From: Candidatus Woesearchaeota archaeon
GTDB taxonomy: Archaea > Nanobdellota > Nanobdellia > Woesearchaeales > JACQSR01
DNA length: 64,000 bases
Assembly (NCBI GenBank): GCA_016211215.1
Contig: JACQSR010000014.1
Coordinates: forward strand, 14,980 to 78,979
Reading direction: 5' to 3'
Numbering within the stretch: the first letter of the stretch is position 1; the number at the start of each line of letters is the position of its first letter. A model generated the notes under the pieces. That model was not told the DNA's origin, ran no database searches, and saw nothing but the letters and a program-made list of their open reading frames with translations. The translations under genes and the position numbers were made by a program. Positions 12,947 to 46,158 of the stretch are shown here, in pieces.

Positions 12947-13522
12947 TTACTTGCATGCGCCGTCTTTGCAGGAGCAGGAAACTTCCCTTTCAACAACCTC
13001 TGAACCTGAGCAGAAGTACTCTATAAGGGTTTTTGGGTCCCTGCACTTCTCAATCTCTGCAAACTCGCCAGCGGCATTTCCCCCGATGAGTATTGACCTT
13101 ACCGGCAGGTTTACCCCGTTATCTGATTCAGAGCATGATGGGTTGCATGCCCCTGCATTGCATCCATTGGCGCATCCAACAAGCTTCTGCAATATCGCTT
13201 CCTTGCCGTCCTTCTCGCCGCAATAGTACTCGAGAACCTTGCTGAGGTGGCAGGAATCTTTTACTGAAATACCGCCAAGTGATGTTTCTCCCTGAATGAA
13301 GATGTTTGTTGCGTCTGAATCGGCGCACTGACGCTCCATTACAACAGCGCCGGTAACTGCCTGATTCGGTGCAGGGACTGGGGCCCCGTTCTGCTTCTCT
13401 ATGGTTACATTGCTTCCGAAAGAAAGAATTGCTATCAACCCTACGACAAGCAGGACTGCGGCGATGGCAGCAACGTTAGTGATTTTCCTGTTGCGCTCCC
13501 TGATTTTCTTTTCCGGGTCCAT
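12947..13522 (-). CDS. membrane-anchored Cys-rich repeat protein
   Basis: N-terminal TM; two CxDSD...D/KC...LxEYxC...C..GAC modules. Confidence 0.75.
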   Translation of the reverse strand: MDPEKKIRERNRKITNVAAIAAVLLVVGLIAILSFGSNVTIEKQNGAPVPAPNQAVTGAVVMERQCADSDATNIFIQGETSLGGISVKDSCHLSKVLEYYCGEKDGKEAILQKLVGCANGCNAGACNPSCSESDNGVNLPVRSILIGGNAAGEFAEIEKCRDPKTLIEYFCSGSEVVEREVSCSCKDGACK

Positions 13523-15244: not shown

Positions 15245-16488
15245 GATGCCACATGATGTTTTTTTCTCAATACAAGGTACTTGAACATGACCGGCGACAA
15301 TAAAGTGGTAAAAAGTGTCATGAATACTATCGCCGAGAATATTTCCCCCGAGATTATTCCGTGGGAGCGCGCCATTTCAGCAAACACAAGCTCAACTGAG
15401 CCACGGGAATTGAGCGCCCACCCTATTATGAACCCTTCCCCGGTGCTGCCATTTCCAATAATACTTCCAAGTGTCGAGCCGATAAGCTGGCCGCCAAATG
15501 CCGCAACGGTCAGCGCGACTACAAGCAAGGGACTTTCAAGGAAAGATGACAGCTCGACATTAAGGCCGACCCATATGAAAAAGAAAGGCACGAGAAGCCC
15601 GAATGCTGTTGTTTTTATGGCATTTATGGTAATCTGGTGCTCACTCATCTTCAGCTTGAGCTCATTGAACTTTCTTGTGCTCATCCCAAAAAGGGATTTC
15701 TTGCCCTCTTTGTACTCCAGCCTGCCATGGCGCTCCATTGACTTGCTCATGACGAATCCCGCAATCAGCGCACCGATGAGGAACCCGAACCCGAGGTAAT
15801 CTGCCAATACAGAGAAAACCAGTGCAAGGATGACGGACAGCATGAACATGTTTATCTCAAGATTGTTTTTTTCACCGATAACAAGGGCCTTTGGTATGAT
15901 GTACCTGTAAAAAATCAGGATAACCAATGCAAACAGCAGAAGGAACGGCACAAGAAGTAATGGGGATGAGCCGCCTTCCGTCAACGCAACAATAACCGCA
16001 ATCATCAGGATTTCTATGATGTTGTCCACCAGGCCGGCAGAAACAACTATGGTGCCAATCCTTGACTTAAGCATTCCGACTTCCTCAAGTATGTTAACTG
16101 CCATTGCCTCTGCAGTAACTGATATTGAGGCTCCAAGTATGCCTGAAACAAGGTTCGAGAAGCCGAAGAGCTTTCCAACAGCAAACCCCAGGGTGAATGA
16201 AGAGAGGACGTTAAGGATAGTTATCATCACCGAAATCTTTCCGCTTTTGAGCATGTCCCTTAGATTGAGCTCAAAGCCTACGTAGAACATGAGAAACACC
16301 AGGCCGATGTCGGAGAAAGAGGACATCACCAGGGAATTTCCCAAAACTATTTCTCTCAACGGGCTTATCTTGATTGCAATGCCGACTATGATTGGTGCGA
16401 GAACCCGCGGCAGTTTCAGCTTGGAGAACAATTCGGAAAGGACCCAGGAAAGAGACAGGGCGAGCAGTATGATGTAGAGCACATTCAT
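15241..16488 (-). CDS. cation:proton antiporter (CPA2/Kef type)
   Basis: IGLVFLMFYVGFE, LVPFFFIWVG, SRGSVEL; about 12 TM segments. Confidence 0.9.
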   Translation of the reverse strand: MNVLYIILLALSLSWVLSELFSKLKLPRVLAPIIVGIAIKISPLREIVLGNSLVMSSFSDIGLVFLMFYVGFELNLRDMLKSGKISVMITILNVLSSFTLGFAVGKLFGFSNLVSGILGASISVTAEAMAVNILEEVGMLKSRIGTIVVSAGLVDNIIEILMIAVIVALTEGGSSPLLLVPFLLLFALVILIFYRYIIPKALVIGEKNNLEINMFMLSVILALVFSVLADYLGFGFLIGALIAGFVMSKSMERHGRLEYKEGKKSLFGMSTRKFNELKLKMSEHQITINAIKTTAFGLLVPFFFIWVGLNVELSSFLESPLLVVALTVAAFGGQLIGSTLGSIIGNGSTGEGFIIGWALNSRGSVELVFAEMARSHGIISGEIFSAIVFMTLFTTLLSPVMFKYLVLRKKHHVAS

Positions 16489-16535
16489 TTTTATCCCGGC
16501 TTTAATCCCAGGATAACTGTATAAAAAGGTTTGGG

Positions 16536-16556
16536 AATAATGGGCCTGGGAAGATT
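16536..16556 (-). repeat. 21-bp duplication of the tRNA-Arg 3' end (att-like)
   Basis: AATAATGGGCCTGGGAAGATT is identical to 16625..16645. Confidence 0.9.
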
Positions 16557-16562
16557 ACACGC

Positions 16563-16618
16563 AAGGGTTACACCCTACGCACACCCGTACTCAAGTGAGA
16601 CATAAAGTCTCACGGACT
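16563..16618 (+). repeat. tRNA-associated structured repeat family C, copy 1
   Basis: 41/56 ungapped identity to 43364..43419, with compensatory changes in the hairpin. Confidence 0.8.
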
Positions 16619-16629
16619 TAGGAAAATAA

Positions 16630-16733
16630 TGGGCCTGGGAAGATTTGAACTCCCGATCTTCTGCTGTCTGATATCAGGGTTAGCTCCCTGATGTTAGAAG
16701 GCAGACGCCCTATCCAGGCTAGGCTACAGGCCC
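16630..16733 (-). tRNA. tRNA-Arg(TCT) with 29-nt intron at 37/38 (16666..16694)
   Basis: GGGCCTG acceptor stem, TCTGC/GCAGA anticodon stem, TTCAAAT T-loop; intron hairpin ATCAGGG/CCCTGAT with relaxed BHB. Confidence 0.92.
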
Positions 16734-16760
16734 ACATAGAAGAAAGTTGCAAAAGTGTAT

Positions 16761-16901
16761 TTAAATGTTAGTGAAGCCCTGCTGAGATGAAGAGTGCTGC
16801 GTGCAGTTTTTCTTGCCTTCCCAGTATACCCAGCATTCCCCATCGAAGCGCTCCCAGTTAAGGCAGCCGCTGCAGCATTCAGGCGCCTGATTTTTTGTCA
16901 T
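16761..16901 (-). CDS. small Cys/Trp-rich protein (46 aa), putative metal-binding
   Basis: MTKNQAPECCSGCLNWERFDGECWVYWEGKKNCTQH...; TTTTATA box ~25 nt upstream; below the ORF-track cutoff. Confidence 0.65.
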   Translation of the reverse strand: MTKNQAPECCSGCLNWERFDGECWVYWEGKKNCTQHSSSQQGFTNI

Positions 16902-16935
16902 GGTTATAGTGTGTTATGCAGGGGGTATAAAAATT

Positions 16936-18030
16936 TTATGGTAGCCAGCTCTTCTGGTCAGCAAGCTTTTTGGGAAGATAATCCGATATGACAAAATTAA
17001 GCCCGTGCTTCGCCAATGCCTGCTGCTCCGCCCTTACCTTCATCTTTGCCATCTGCTCCAAGGCTTTCTGCCACGGCTTGTAATGCCTGATGAAAGGGTC
17101 GTTTTTGATTAAGTCCTTTATTTTTTTAATGTCAACCTCTTTTAACGGGTGGGTTGGAAGCTGGTAATCAACAATATCCTGGGGAGTAATGCCTATAAAC
17201 TGAGCCTGGGGCACGCAGAAATACTCGTTAATGTGCGCTGCATTTCCCGAACCGGCTTTTAGTGTCCTATAAATGGACCCGAAGCCGTAAGGATCGCCAT
17301 CAGTAAAAACATAAACTGGAATCTTTTTCGTGTCAGCAAGCCTTCTTATGAATCTCCTGCACGCCCTTGTGGGAACTCCGCCCATGGATATCAATATGCA
17401 GTTTGCCTTCTTCCAGTAATTGTGCTTCACAAGCCTCTGGAACATACCTGCAGTCTCAATTGCAAGAATGAATTTTGCATCTGTTTCAAACTTCAGATGT
17501 TCAACTGAAATCGGGATTGAATACGCCCCGGAGCCGAATTTGGTGCAGTCTATCCTAAGCTCCTTTTCTGTATCGCGGTCTTTGTCTATTACAATAAGCT
17601 TTCCCGCTATTTCACCGCCTTTTTCCTCGGGAATGAAACCAATCTGCTCTCGGTTGACCATCATCATTGCCTCTATGTCGTCCATAACTGCGTCTGAATC
17701 CGGCTGTTCGGAGAATCTTGCAGGGCCCCAGTTTTTTGAGATGTAGTAAGCCTCCCTTTTTGAGGCAATGTCATCAGTTTCAACAAGATTTTTTGAGAGG
17801 GACATCATCTTGAGAGTTTGCGCAAATGTCTTGACTGTTCCAGCTGTAAGGGTGCGCTCCTTGGTCTTGCCGAGAAGCTCGAAGTATCCTTCCTTTTCAT
17901 CGTACTTGACGTTGTTCAGGGCACGAAGTGGCATCCTAAGCTCAGGCTGCTTTTTCTTCAGGATTGAGTTGTAGACATTGCCCGCTATGTTCTTTATTTC
18001 ACCGAGCACATCATTCGCTTTCTTCGTCAT
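16936..18030 (-). CDS. top6A: DNA topoisomerase VI subunit A
   Basis: SKREAYY catalytic Tyr region, [23 protein letters not shown]. Confidence 0.97.
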
Positions 18031-43054: not shown

Positions 43055-43128
43055 GACAGATGAACTTCTTTCGGGGCATCCTGGTTTGCAAGTTTTTATA
43101 AAGCTGATATTTTTCTACCCTTCTTCGT

Positions 43129-43358
43129 GGGGCCATGGTGTAACTTGGCCAACATTGGGTCTTCGGGGGACTCAGCTCGGGGTTCAAATGTAAGGGCTGC
43201 GCCGTGAGAGACTGCACCTGATGGAAACAACGAGTTTCCAGCACATCCACAACTATGCGGATGCTTCACACGCTGGCAGTCAAGTGGGATTTTCAATCCC
43301 ACGGACTTTGCTGAAGTGAAGAAAAATGCAACCCTTAATGAAAGTCCCCGTGGCCCCA
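43129..43358 (+). tRNA. tRNA-Pro(CGG) with 156-nt intron at 59/60 (43189..43344)
   Basis: GGGGCCA/TGGCCCC acceptor, GGGTC-TTCGGGG-GACTC anticodon arm; BHB with TTCA/TGAA helix and AA|T and AG|T bulges restores TTCAAAT. Confidence 0.9.
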
Positions 43359-43363
43359 TATCT

Positions 43364-43419
43364 AAGGGTTGCACCCGATAGACCCCCGCAGTTAAGTGGG
43401 ACTTGCAGTCCCACGAACT
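43364..43419 (+). repeat. tRNA-associated structured repeat family C, copy 2
   Basis: AAGGGTTGCACCC...AAGTGGGAC-ttgca-GTCCCACGAACT. Confidence 0.8.
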
Positions 43420-43436
43420 GCACGATTTAAGAAATT

Positions 43437-43889
43437 CTACTTGAATATTTCCTGAATAACTTTTTCAGCAACGCTTCTCTTTTTCGGAAATGACGCAATG
43501 CTGATTCTAATGTGGAAGCAGTTGCCTGAATCCGTAACCTGAAAGATGTTTTCATCAATTAATTTGTCCTTTTCGAGGCGAATGAAGAAATCCATATCCT
43601 CATCAAGCCTCGAATGGAGCTGGCGGATTAGAAGCTGTTTTTGGTCCGCGGAAAGCTTTTCCCTGAGATTGTCAATAAATGGATTTGTATGCCTCTCTTT
43701 TGTCAGCACAACTTTGTAAATCAGGATTGCGCTTTCGTCTGCCGCAGTAGCCTTCGTGGATTCTATCGGGATTTTTTCCTGCTCAAGGTCAAACGGAAAC
43801 AGCTCTTTCAGCCTTGAAAGAACCATCTCCTCCCCTGCTTTTGCAAATACTGTCACCTGGATGGTGTGCGCGAGTTTCACGAACTGCAC
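43437..43889 (-). CDS. archaeal RNA-binding protein (COG1325, exosome-associated type)
   Basis: FFIRLEKD...TDSGNCFHIRISIASFP. Confidence 0.75.
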   Translation of the reverse strand: MQFVKLAHTIQVTVFAKAGEEMVLSRLKELFPFDLEQEKIPIESTKATAADESAILIYKVVLTKERHTNPFIDNLREKLSADQKQLLIRQLHSRLDEDMDFFIRLEKDKLIDENIFQVTDSGNCFHIRISIASFPKKRSVAEKVIQEIFK

Positions 43890-45752: not shown

Positions 45753-45887
45753 TTTGGCCCCCGAGAGGCGAGTATTCTGCGAAGTTAATAAATTTTTTGA
45801 TTTGGGTTGCCCATACCCTCACTTGTAAACTGATGTAAAGCGTGTATTAAAGCAACCTTTATAAGGCATTATTTACTCTACCATACC

Positions 45888-46154
45888 GCAGGCTAGGTTG
45901 GGAAGATAGCACTCTCCTGTCACTCCAGACGTGCTTAGGGAGGACTGAATGCCGGAATGAGGGTGCATCAGATTGCATTGGTCTTGGCCTGGACGAAGAC
46001 GCTTTGTCCTGCTGGGCTGATGCTTCTGGGAAACGTGTCAGGTCAGGAATGAAGCAGCACTAACCTTTTGCATTGGTGTCTTCAGGGTTGCAGAGCCGAG
46101 GAAAGGACAAGGCAAACCATTGCAGTTTGGTGTATTCGACTTCCGGATGCCTGC
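45888..46154 (+). ncRNA. archaeal SRP RNA (7S)
   Basis: Helix 8 GTGTCAGGTCAGGAATGAAGCAGCAC; terminal GCAGGC/GCCTGC pairing; TTTATAA promoter. Confidence 0.88.
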
Positions 46155-46158
46155 ACTT

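Follow-up and report, generated by a model that had tools for sequence, protein, structure and literature searches.

The route by which introns arrive in archaeal tRNA genes is an open question, and the tRNA-Pro(CGG) locus described here raises it anew: the T-loop of this gene is interrupted by an intron, and related units lie just behind it and just behind a tRNA-Arg(TCT) gene. What are these units, and which came first, the intron or the free copy? The window that we analysed, a stretch of 64,000 nucleotides from a Candidatus Woesearchaeota archaeon, corresponds to positions 14980-78979 of contig C3 of the genome that we call G000 (1.06 Mb in 35 contigs, about 45% G+C, 84% completeness). G and L numbers denote genomes and loci within the comparison set: G003 is a congener of G000, G001 and G002 also belong to the genus, G041 belongs to another family, and 101 relatives were scanned. 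The 56-nt unit to which the initial annotation had drawn attention behind both tRNAs is the 5′ two-thirds of a bulge-helix-bulge (BHB) intron family, here called family C, which occupies tRNA position 59/60. On the evidence set out below, it is very probable that family C is mobile and that its ectopic members are derivatives of it.

The tRNA-Pro(CGG) intron and family C

The tRNA-Pro(CGG) gene lies at 43129-43358 of the plus strand. From our reading of the sequence, exon 1 (43129..43188, +) runs from the 5′ strand of the acceptor stem to T-loop A59, and exon 2 (43345..43358, +) comprises T60, the 3′ strands of the T-stem and of the acceptor stem, and the discriminator A. Between T-loop positions 59 (A) and 60 (T) lies a 156-nt intron (43189..43344, +), a long-form member of family C that matches the covariance model of the family, R1, over 43191-43309 with 68.5 bits; R1 was built from 10 copies after an initial fuzzy search. 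When 43189-43344 was excised in silico, ARAGORN recognised a 76-nt tRNA-Pro(cgg). The intron starts with TG-TAAGGGCTGCGCC; next come a further 5′ end, nested in it (GTGAGAGACTGCACC), and a module of 45 nt (TGATGG...GGATG). The hairpin occupies 43281-43301, and behind it the closing arm TGCAACCCTTA leads to a tail, ATGAAAG, that pairs with the T-loop TTCA. Pairing by hand gives a BHB composed of the T-stem, a bulge AGT, the helix TTCA:TGAA, a bulge AAT and the helix TAAGGG:CCCTTA, and the predicted fold closes the T-stem and the terminal helix of the intron (z = -4.85). The 45-nt module (TGATGGAAAC...GGATG; window 43216-43260) is identical in three G000 introns (Pro(CGG), C21 and C25) and absent from the Pro(CGG) intron of G003. 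We dropped a reading of this module as a C/D-box RNA, the D-box-like CTGA being missing in one of the three long-form introns.

Downstream of the gene, 4 nt past the 3′ end of tRNA-Pro, stands an ectopic short-form copy that consists of the 5′ core only (43363..43421, +, sense; R1, 80.3 bits). It lacks the 3′ closing arm and is identical at 55 of 59 positions to the intron of the tRNA at C30:10818-10925. Its positions 43364-43419 match 16563-16618, behind tRNA-Arg, at 41 of 56 ungapped positions, and this match, from which the initial annotation set out, is real: among the other 56-mers of the window, on both strands, the maximum is 28 (mean 13.8, standard deviation 3.2), and the third copy, within the Pro intron, reaches 35. 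The hairpins of the two units, AAGTGGGAC-TTGCA-GTCCCACGAACT and AAGTGAGAC-ATAAA-GTCTCACGGACT, do contain the compensatory pairs described earlier. The third copy, announced as split, was found where it had been placed (AAGGGCTGCGCC at 43192, with 43276-43307), and it proves to be a complete long-form member that carries nested insertions, with a duplicated 5′ end and the 45-nt module. As had also been noticed, the intron closes with TGCAACCCTTA, which matches TAAGGGTTGCA at 43363-43373 exactly when read as its reverse complement; the resulting 11-bp perfect inverted repeat doubles as the closing helix of the BHB.

R1 finds 11 copies in G000: eight introns at 59/60, in at least six isotypes, the two tRNA-adjacent copies of the window, and one free hairpin. 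Ten of the 11 lie inside tRNA genes or at most 5 nt away from them, and the covariance-model scan thus bears out the earlier idea of a structured repeat family tied to T-loops. The introns are located at window 43189-43344, C16:11922-12029, C21 about 12950-13120, C25:6352-6509, C25:5553-5714, C26:34906-35016, C30:10818-10925 and C34:3347-3462. The free hairpin (C12:11570-11670; L007:307-340) has a 5′ part of a second type and is intergenic, about 1.5 kb from the nearest tRNA. All eight introns follow one plan, namely (N)N-TAAGGGYTGCRCC as the 5′ arm, a variable middle, the hairpin YAAG-stem-loop-stem-CGRACT, the 3′ arm TGCAAYCCCTTA, and a YGAAAG tail directly before T60, and their cores match at 51-55 of 59 positions. 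The 3′ arm pairs with the 5′ arm and the YGAA of the tail with the near-universal T-loop TTCR, and T-stem, TTCR:YGAA and arm helix together form the succession helix, 3-nt bulge, 4 bp, 3-nt bulge, helix.

The structure of the hairpin is under selection. In A2, the set of 49 model-aligned R1 matches used for the covariation test, to which G000, its congeners and further genomes of the order contributed, 88.8% of the cells pair, against 26-48% in slid-partner controls, although A2 is fitted to the model structure and its paired counts are thereby favoured. Eleven of the 12 hairpin pairs have changed on both sides, and none of 500 shuffles reached the observed covariation. Discrete hairpin alleles, for example GGCAT-CTACG-ATGCC and GGGAT-TTTCA-ATCCC, recur in both G000 and G003 with different 5′ parts.

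Standard searches overlook these genes. With its default settings, ARAGORN detected no tRNA anywhere in the window, and Rfam at gathering scores yielded only tRNA-Arg and an archaeal signal recognition particle (SRP) RNA (45886-46156, 105.1 bits, 2.5 kb downstream of tRNA-Pro); no Rfam family matched 43100-43450, even with E up to 5. With canonical introns permitted, ARAGORN called 25 tRNAs in G000; many of its tRNA genes must thus have interruptions of an unusual kind. At least 13 are interrupted in the T-loop, five of them by unrelated short inserts at 59/60 (C5:1811-1840, C9:21618-21661, C12:9699-9746, C30:8252-8282 and C34:1856-1906). Excision at 59/60 in silico restored an ARAGORN-recognisable tRNA in 13 of 13 cases (eight of family C and the five others), and the restored hosts include Pro(CGG), Pro(TGG), Gln(CTG), CAT and Leu(TAA); some of the isotype calls look wrong, and C25a, which has G3:U70, reads as Ala(GGC). 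T-loop introns explain why, in genomes of this sort, many tRNAs escape the usual tRNA finders.

Five intron-bearing stretches were folded: the T-stem and the arm helix closed in all five (z = -2.6 to -6.7), and the 4-bp TTCR:YGAA helix appeared in the minimum free energy (MFE) or centroid structure of two (L001 and L005). The predicted BHB cut sites coincide with the insertion boundaries of an intron in the tRNA-Gly gene of G003, described below. The catalytic domain of the splicing endonuclease EndA is encoded in G000, its sole tRNA_int_endo match (98.1 bits) lying in a 199-amino-acid frame at C20:55005-55265. These predictions suggest that family-C introns are spliced in vivo.

Ectopic copies, duplicated tRNA ends and turnover between species

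The tRNA-Arg(TCT) gene (16630..16734, -) has a canonical intron in the anticodon loop and an uninterrupted T-loop; ARAGORN calls it as Arg(tct) with an intron, and the Rfam tRNA model matches 16630-16733 with 54.7 bits. Behind it lies the most diverged member of the family, an ectopic copy of the 5′ core that is antisense to the tRNA (16557..16624, +; R1 match 16562-16620, 66.9 bits) and is flanked by two direct repeats. The proximal one (16625..16645, -) is the functional 3′ part of tRNA-Arg, from A58 to A73, with a 5-nt trailer (TTATT); the distal one (16536..16556, -) is a perfect 21-nt second copy of the same 3′ part and trailer (AATAATGGGCCTGGGAAGATT, 21/21 identity), contiguous with a conserved downstream flank (...CAAACCTTTTTATA) that is common to G003. 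At the orthologous loci of G003, G001 and G002 the copy is missing, and site 59/60 of this tRNA holds different short introns in G002 and G003 and none in G001 and G000. This architecture is not an assembly artefact, because contigs of three public runs (one of which, X3, may be the source sample) cover window 15800-17400 with zero differences.

In G003 the same two states recur. Six of its 14 R1 copies are introns, and five more start 2-5 nt past the discriminator of intact tRNAs, three of them sharing the junction N73-TT-AG-TAAGGG, with N73-TT-C-TAAGGG behind tRNA-Phe and N73-T-CC-TAAGGG behind tRNA-Cys. Behind tRNA-Val(GAC) we found a complete unit (AG-TAAGGG...CGAAAG) followed by a perfect 17-nt copy (17/17) of T60 to A73 plus TTA, contiguous with conserved host flank, and behind tRNA-Lys(CTT) a unit followed by a 16-nt copy that starts at G57 (16/16). 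A duplicated end may be present, in eroded form, behind tRNA-Phe; none was found behind the Cys and Ala tRNAs of G003 or, in a search of the neighbourhood, behind tRNA-Pro of G000. The two modes of tolerance that the initial annotation had proposed, a BHB intron at 59/60 and a copy with a duplicated tRNA 3′ end, thus both exist in both species; the duplication itself holds at Arg, with 21 nt, and does not extend to the copy behind Pro.

Empty alleles, whose search had been recommended, were looked for across species, and six orthologous loci differ in presence or absence, within syntenic flanks that are about 65-83% identical between G000 and G003: the post-Phe, post-Lys and post-Cys copies and the Gly intron occur in G003 only, the post-Pro and post-Arg copies in G000 only. 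The exons of tRNA-Gly(GCC) are identical in the two species; the gene is uninterrupted in G000, whereas in G003 a family-C intron separates A59 from T60 precisely, without any duplication. The intron-less tRNA-Gln of G001 is a TTG paralogue and was not used as an empty site. Where both orthologous tRNAs carry family-C introns, the ortholog is the best match in one pair of four only (Pro(CGG), 54/59); the other three pairs score 43/58, 40/59 and 35/58, and the best matches of their introns are copies in other tRNAs, often of the other species, at 54-55 of 58-59 positions. We also observed that synteny between G000 and G003 breaks directly behind element-bearing tRNA genes (G003 L044:522-899 against G000 C14:9468-9845; G003 L009 beyond 1498), and that the segment after tRNA-Ala(TGC) in G000 follows another tRNA in G003.

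These observations bear on the view that nothing here moves, and that the family is a vertically inherited structure for the processing or regulation of pre-tRNA, kept by selection or gene conversion. The strongly conserved hairpin, the hairpin alleles that are identical in both species and the similarity of the orthologous Pro(CGG) introns would all fit it. Against it stand the six presence/absence differences, the unrelated variants in three of the four ortholog pairs, the antisense and truncated copies, and the copy numbers within one genus, which are 11 in G000, 14 in G003, two in G001 and one in G002. This explanation is already largely refuted, and we give it next to no credence. Beyond the genus, G041 has one strong match, and weaker R1 matches, mostly partial and over the hairpin, occur in 10 more of the 101 genomes. 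Among the matches listed, named records with full-length copies are labelled Candidatus Nanoarchaeia and those with weaker partial matches Woesearchaeota; the lineage is therefore DPANN-like.

Which state gave rise to the other? The initial annotation had proposed that a mobile element became an intron. Introns are the majority form in G000 (8/11) and make up 6 of the 14 copies in G003. Some ectopic copies retain termini proper to introns, namely the post-Val and post-Ala copies of G003 (the latter ending in ...TTGAAAG) and L027 of G078 (complete, TG-TAAGGG...GTGAAAG, antisense); the two ectopic copies of the window end after the hairpin and are uninformative on direction. The ectopic copies probably stem from introns, because the YGAAAG tail, whose role is evident only in a T-loop BHB, persists on some of them; the direction first proposed would thus be reversed. 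Subfamilies occur in both states: in G003, one with a module of about 54 nt comprises the Gly intron and the post-Phe and post-Ala copies (L046, L059, L044), and in G000 the short form comprises two introns and the post-Pro copy (55/59 and 53/59). This suggests that the same recent activity yields introns as well as ectopic copies.

The opposite direction is implied if family C is an element akin to a miniature inverted-repeat transposable element, which is bounded by terminal inverted repeats of 11 bp (TAAGGGTTGCA / TGCAACCCTTA), is moved into T-loops by an enzyme of the HUH or tyrosine type, and became spliceable only secondarily. The occurrence of copies in both orientations outside genes, the flanking duplications and a covarying hairpin of the kind that single-strand transposases use as substrate could be read in this way. 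However, the inverted repeats serve equally as the closing helix of the BHB, and the ends are asymmetric, with 1-2 nt before TAAGGG and 7 nt after CCCTTA. The duplications have no fixed length, and the left junctions share no constant target tetranucleotide; scans for a Y1 transposase in G000 and for Cas1 in five genomes found none, and the tail on the ectopic copies points from intron to ectopic copy. We regard this origin as improbable.

The hairpin module is not confined to introns at 59/60. Elsewhere in the order it is found in introns at other tRNA positions and, antisense to the tRNA, between repeats of tRNA 3′ ends (three times in G010, and in G050 and G078). In G086 (L015) and in a record labelled Methanosarcinales (L117:3803-3844) it lies between repeats of a tRNA 5′ part, upstream of a complete tRNA; the repeat in L117 comprises the leader and positions 1 to about 35, and duplication of a 5′ end thus occurs outside DPANN as well. 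At the 3′ end of the SRP54 gene, in two families of the order (G003 L061:462-596 and G078 L035), a hairpin element with a different 5′ part (CATTTCTCTGCAGAGAAATGAGCAAAGAGT) begins 2 nt past the stop codon and is followed by a diverged second copy, of about 40-50 nt, of the 3′ end of the gene; the SRP_SPB domain was confirmed for G003. The two SRP54 ends differ, the displaced one reading ...KMSGM* and the functional one ...KMG*. In G081 (L017:1501-1530) the module lies inside a 16S rRNA insert, between ...GGATTAGATAC and CCCGAGTAGTCC.

Routes of insertion

We moderately favour the view that family C is a mobile intron family whose ectopic copies derive from introns by an off-register version of the process that places the introns. 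A family-C intron would land at 59/60, where the splicing endonuclease would cut exactly at the ends of the element, and any T-loop would be a viable landing site, because the tail pairs with the near-universal TTCR and could form a BHB in any tRNA. On this view the family copies itself between tRNA genes and, apparently, between species. The process would act on the DNA around the segment from the T-loop to the 3′ end: an insertion in register would give an intron that can be spliced out, and one off register a silent copy, which may or may not come with a duplicated end. At some loci the 16-21 nt that run from the T-loop to slightly beyond the 3′ end are duplicated, and the tRNA stays intact. 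The post-Pro copy and the inverted post-Arg copy, 2-9 nt past the tRNA 3′ ends, would be such off-register, probably silent products. As for the chemistry, we can only tentatively suggest that insertion is a DNA-level cut-and-join rather than RNA-mediated, a route that we rank slightly above both a reverse transcriptase (RT) route and recombination through an attP site.

No enzyme tracks the family, whether Cas1, tyrosine recombinase, Y1, TnpB-type protein or RT. The initial annotation had suggested looking for a co-occurring tyrosine recombinase or HUH transposase; the search returned only a XerA equivalog, with no Y1/HUH protein or Cas1 in G000 and a TnpB/Cas12f-type match in G002 alone. A cognate transposase was not detected in G000 either, as neither Y1_Tnp nor TnpB-type profiles matched, in a genome 84% complete and with DDE families outside the scan. 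The inserts of 59-190 nt contain no open reading frame (ORF) or integrase, and with filters off no R1 copy was found at the RT, Y1 or TnpB loci (best score 12.6 bits). A duplication of fixed length, as a transposase would leave, was not seen: the lengths are 0 nt at Gly, 16 at Lys, 17 at Val and 21 at Arg, with none behind Pro. Several mechanisms were rejected. For insertion of the IS200/IS605 type, the left junctions vary (AAAC, AAAG, AATG, TTAG, ATTC, TATC) and G000 has no TnpA; for a casposon-like element, none of the five genomes has Cas1; and an attC-like hairpin was rejected by eye, the order of the GTT/AAC motifs being reversed relative to the attC layout.

The orientation of the copies, counted by hand, leads to the RNA-mediated alternative, in which excised intron RNA, linear or circular, is the intermediate, an RT switches templates between pre-tRNA 3′ ends and intron RNA, and the cDNA recombines at a tRNA gene, giving either a clean intron at 59/60 or a tRNA followed by the intron and by a repeat from the T-loop to the transcript end. 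Copies embedded in introns are sense in 25 of 26 cases, which speaks for this route, but those next to tRNA 3′ ends are divided into six sense and six antisense. The boundaries of the Gly insertion are BHB splice sites without duplication, some ectopic copies have exact intron termini, and the repeats run from the T-loop to the trailer without CCA, end points that are landmarks of the transcript; the repeat starts range from position 49 to 60, however, so that no single stop site is apparent, and an RT stop at a modified T-loop base was rejected as the repeat boundary for this reason. A group-II-like RT is encoded in four of the five genomes with full-length copies (G000, G001, G003 and G041, which are kin and not independent, three being congeners), yet among the 101 relatives an RT occurs in 4 of 15 genomes with R1 matches and in 19 of 86 without, and no RT match was obtained in G010, a genome of 99% completeness with three hairpin elements between perfect repeats. 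Among the RT loci (G000 C23:16070-16678 and L074-L077), that of G000 lies at a contig end (148 bits against an equivalog cut-off of 300). Just upstream of the RT in G001, G003 and G041 there is an Rfam RT-16 RNA, and in G041 a Y1 transposase gene stands beside the RT; no family-C copy resides at any RT locus. On these grounds we hold an RNA-mediated route to be unlikely, though it keeps more weight than the transposable element discussed above.

One locus resembles the work of an integrative element. In the tRNA-Gln(CTG) gene of G000 (L008), a family-C intron is followed by a 1.2-kb segment (C16:10716-11914) and then by an intron-less copy of the part from the T-loop to the 3′ end (AGTTCGAATCTGCCCGGGGCTAT), next to the host flank. 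The segment contains ORFs of 193 amino acids (which matches a Pol-beta nucleotidyltransferase weakly, with E 1.4e-4, short of the cut-off) and of 168 amino acids without an assigned family. At the Gln locus of G003 the intron is another one, of 23 nt, and both the segment and the distal fragment are missing. In the model of Sugahara et al. (2012, PMC3293823), an attP site on a plasmid- or virus-like element mimics the 3′ part of a tRNA and contains the intron, so that site-specific recombination rebuilds the tRNA and displaces the original 3′ part; the tiny units would then be decayed or cargo-less remnants. The Gln layout and its absence in G003 agree with this, as do the direct repeats of tRNA parts that flank inserts (Arg and the Gln islet of G000, Val and Lys of G003), the variation of repeat length, as in att cores, and the displaced SRP54 end, whose difference from the functional one is expected if the element supplies the replacement. 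The repeats, however, always match the local tRNA, and no single attP could account for insertions at Arg, Lys, Val, Phe, Cys, Ala and Pro alike. The 59-190-nt elements have no integrase, and each of the five genomes has a single tyrosine recombinase, which in G000 is the recomb_XerA_Arch equivalog (229.7 bits against a cut-off of 220) and is conserved in all five. The ends of the Gln islet lack the hairpin module, and its co-location with an intron could be due to chance, eight tRNAs carrying one. Metagenome and viral scans revealed no larger element with the unit: the former gave 35 loci and nine R1 matches without new diversity, and the latter 10 pattern matches, of which only two short contigs, in unrelated contexts, had a weak partial R1 match (23.7 bits). 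In the pattern scan of genome contigs, most of the matches listed were due to chance. We find the integrative explanation quite improbable.

Certain observations weigh against the mobile intron family that we favour, besides the fitting of A2 to the model. The MFE structure of the Pro stretch lacks the 4-bp helix, its BHB being a manual pairing. A mobilising enzyme did not emerge from the searches: Cas1 (PF01867) was absent from five of five genomes, the tyrosine recombinase is the one just described, and Y1/HUH transposases, which are present in G001, G003 and G041, were absent from the scan of G000 at its 84% completeness. An alternative allele at Arg was not seen in the contigs of four runs, in which rare variants are dropped. 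The sense bias of the introns could be explained by an RNA-level route as easily as by selection. Finally, the duplications differ in length: those described here measure 0, 16, 17 and 21 nt, and elsewhere 22-25 nt and as many as about 50 nt occur, a spread that no transposase with a fixed stagger explains.

Comparison with known systems

Transposed tRNA introns in Thermoproteales were reportedly described by Fujishima et al. in Mol Biol Evol in 2010 and by Sugahara et al. in 2008. According to two accounts (PMC4090602; 10.64898/2026.10.13.758758), near-identical BHB introns occur there across isotypes in one genome, including at non-canonical positions, their mobility is inferred, and its mechanism is called unknown. 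Family C is alike in that similar introns occur in several isotypes of one genome. To judge from those accounts, it differs in residing in a genome of about 1 Mb with relatives labelled Candidatus Nanoarchaeia or Woesearchaeota, in having one dominant site, 59/60, with a tail borne by the element itself that pairs with the universal T-loop, and in its ectopic copies 3′ of tRNAs, in both orientations and in some cases with duplicated tRNA ends.

In Caldiarchaeum subterraneum, as presented in the article cited above for the attP model (Sugahara et al. 2012, PMC3293823), a 1.8-kb insert encodes a recombinase and duplicates the 5′ part of a tRNA. There too, the insertion lies between directly repeated tRNA parts, and the tRNA acquires an intron when it is rebuilt, a model that the Gln locus of G000 resembles. 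In contrast to that insert, family-C units are mostly 59-190 nt long and gene-less, every repeat comes from the 3′ part of the tRNA at which it lies, and the unit itself is intron sequence. The 2026 Asgard census (10.64898/2026.10.13.758758) did not identify any general way in which introns arrive. In the literature searched, supplements not covered, there was no description of ectopic intron units behind tRNAs with target duplications, or of the hairpin module. A mobile family of tRNA introns is thus of a known kind, and the ectopic copies with target duplications are new in that literature.

Two congeneric species have recently active subfamilies, each of which is represented by clean introns in the T-loop and by ectopic copies, some with a target duplication and some without, and empty orthologous sites are available for comparison. 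The system offers donors and products of defined sequence, junctions that are known exactly and candidates for the intermediates.

BHB introns are also known in 16S and 23S rRNA genes and in protein genes of Archaea. The hairpin module shares this setting in the 16S rRNA insert of G081, but family C differs in having no ORF for a homing endonuclease and in its units of about 100 nt. The introner elements of eukaryotic algae are DNA transposons that create spliceosomal introns through target duplication. Like them, family C is a non-autonomous repeat whose ends serve the splicing of the host, so that its insertion in a gene is tolerated; unlike them, it would use the protein-only BHB endonuclease, it includes clean insertions without duplication, and no transposase was found. 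It is possible, although we put this forward as a speculation that may well be wrong, that family C is an archaeal counterpart of introners: a self-contained unit whose own tail makes any tRNA that it enters a BHB substrate, and whose repeat-flanked and inverted copies are snapshots of an insertion chemistry that proceeds via the excised intron or via DNA, with the hairpin module perhaps driving the insertions in rRNA, at tRNA 5′ ends and at SRP54 across the order. If this is true, the arrival of archaeal tRNA introns would be directly observable.

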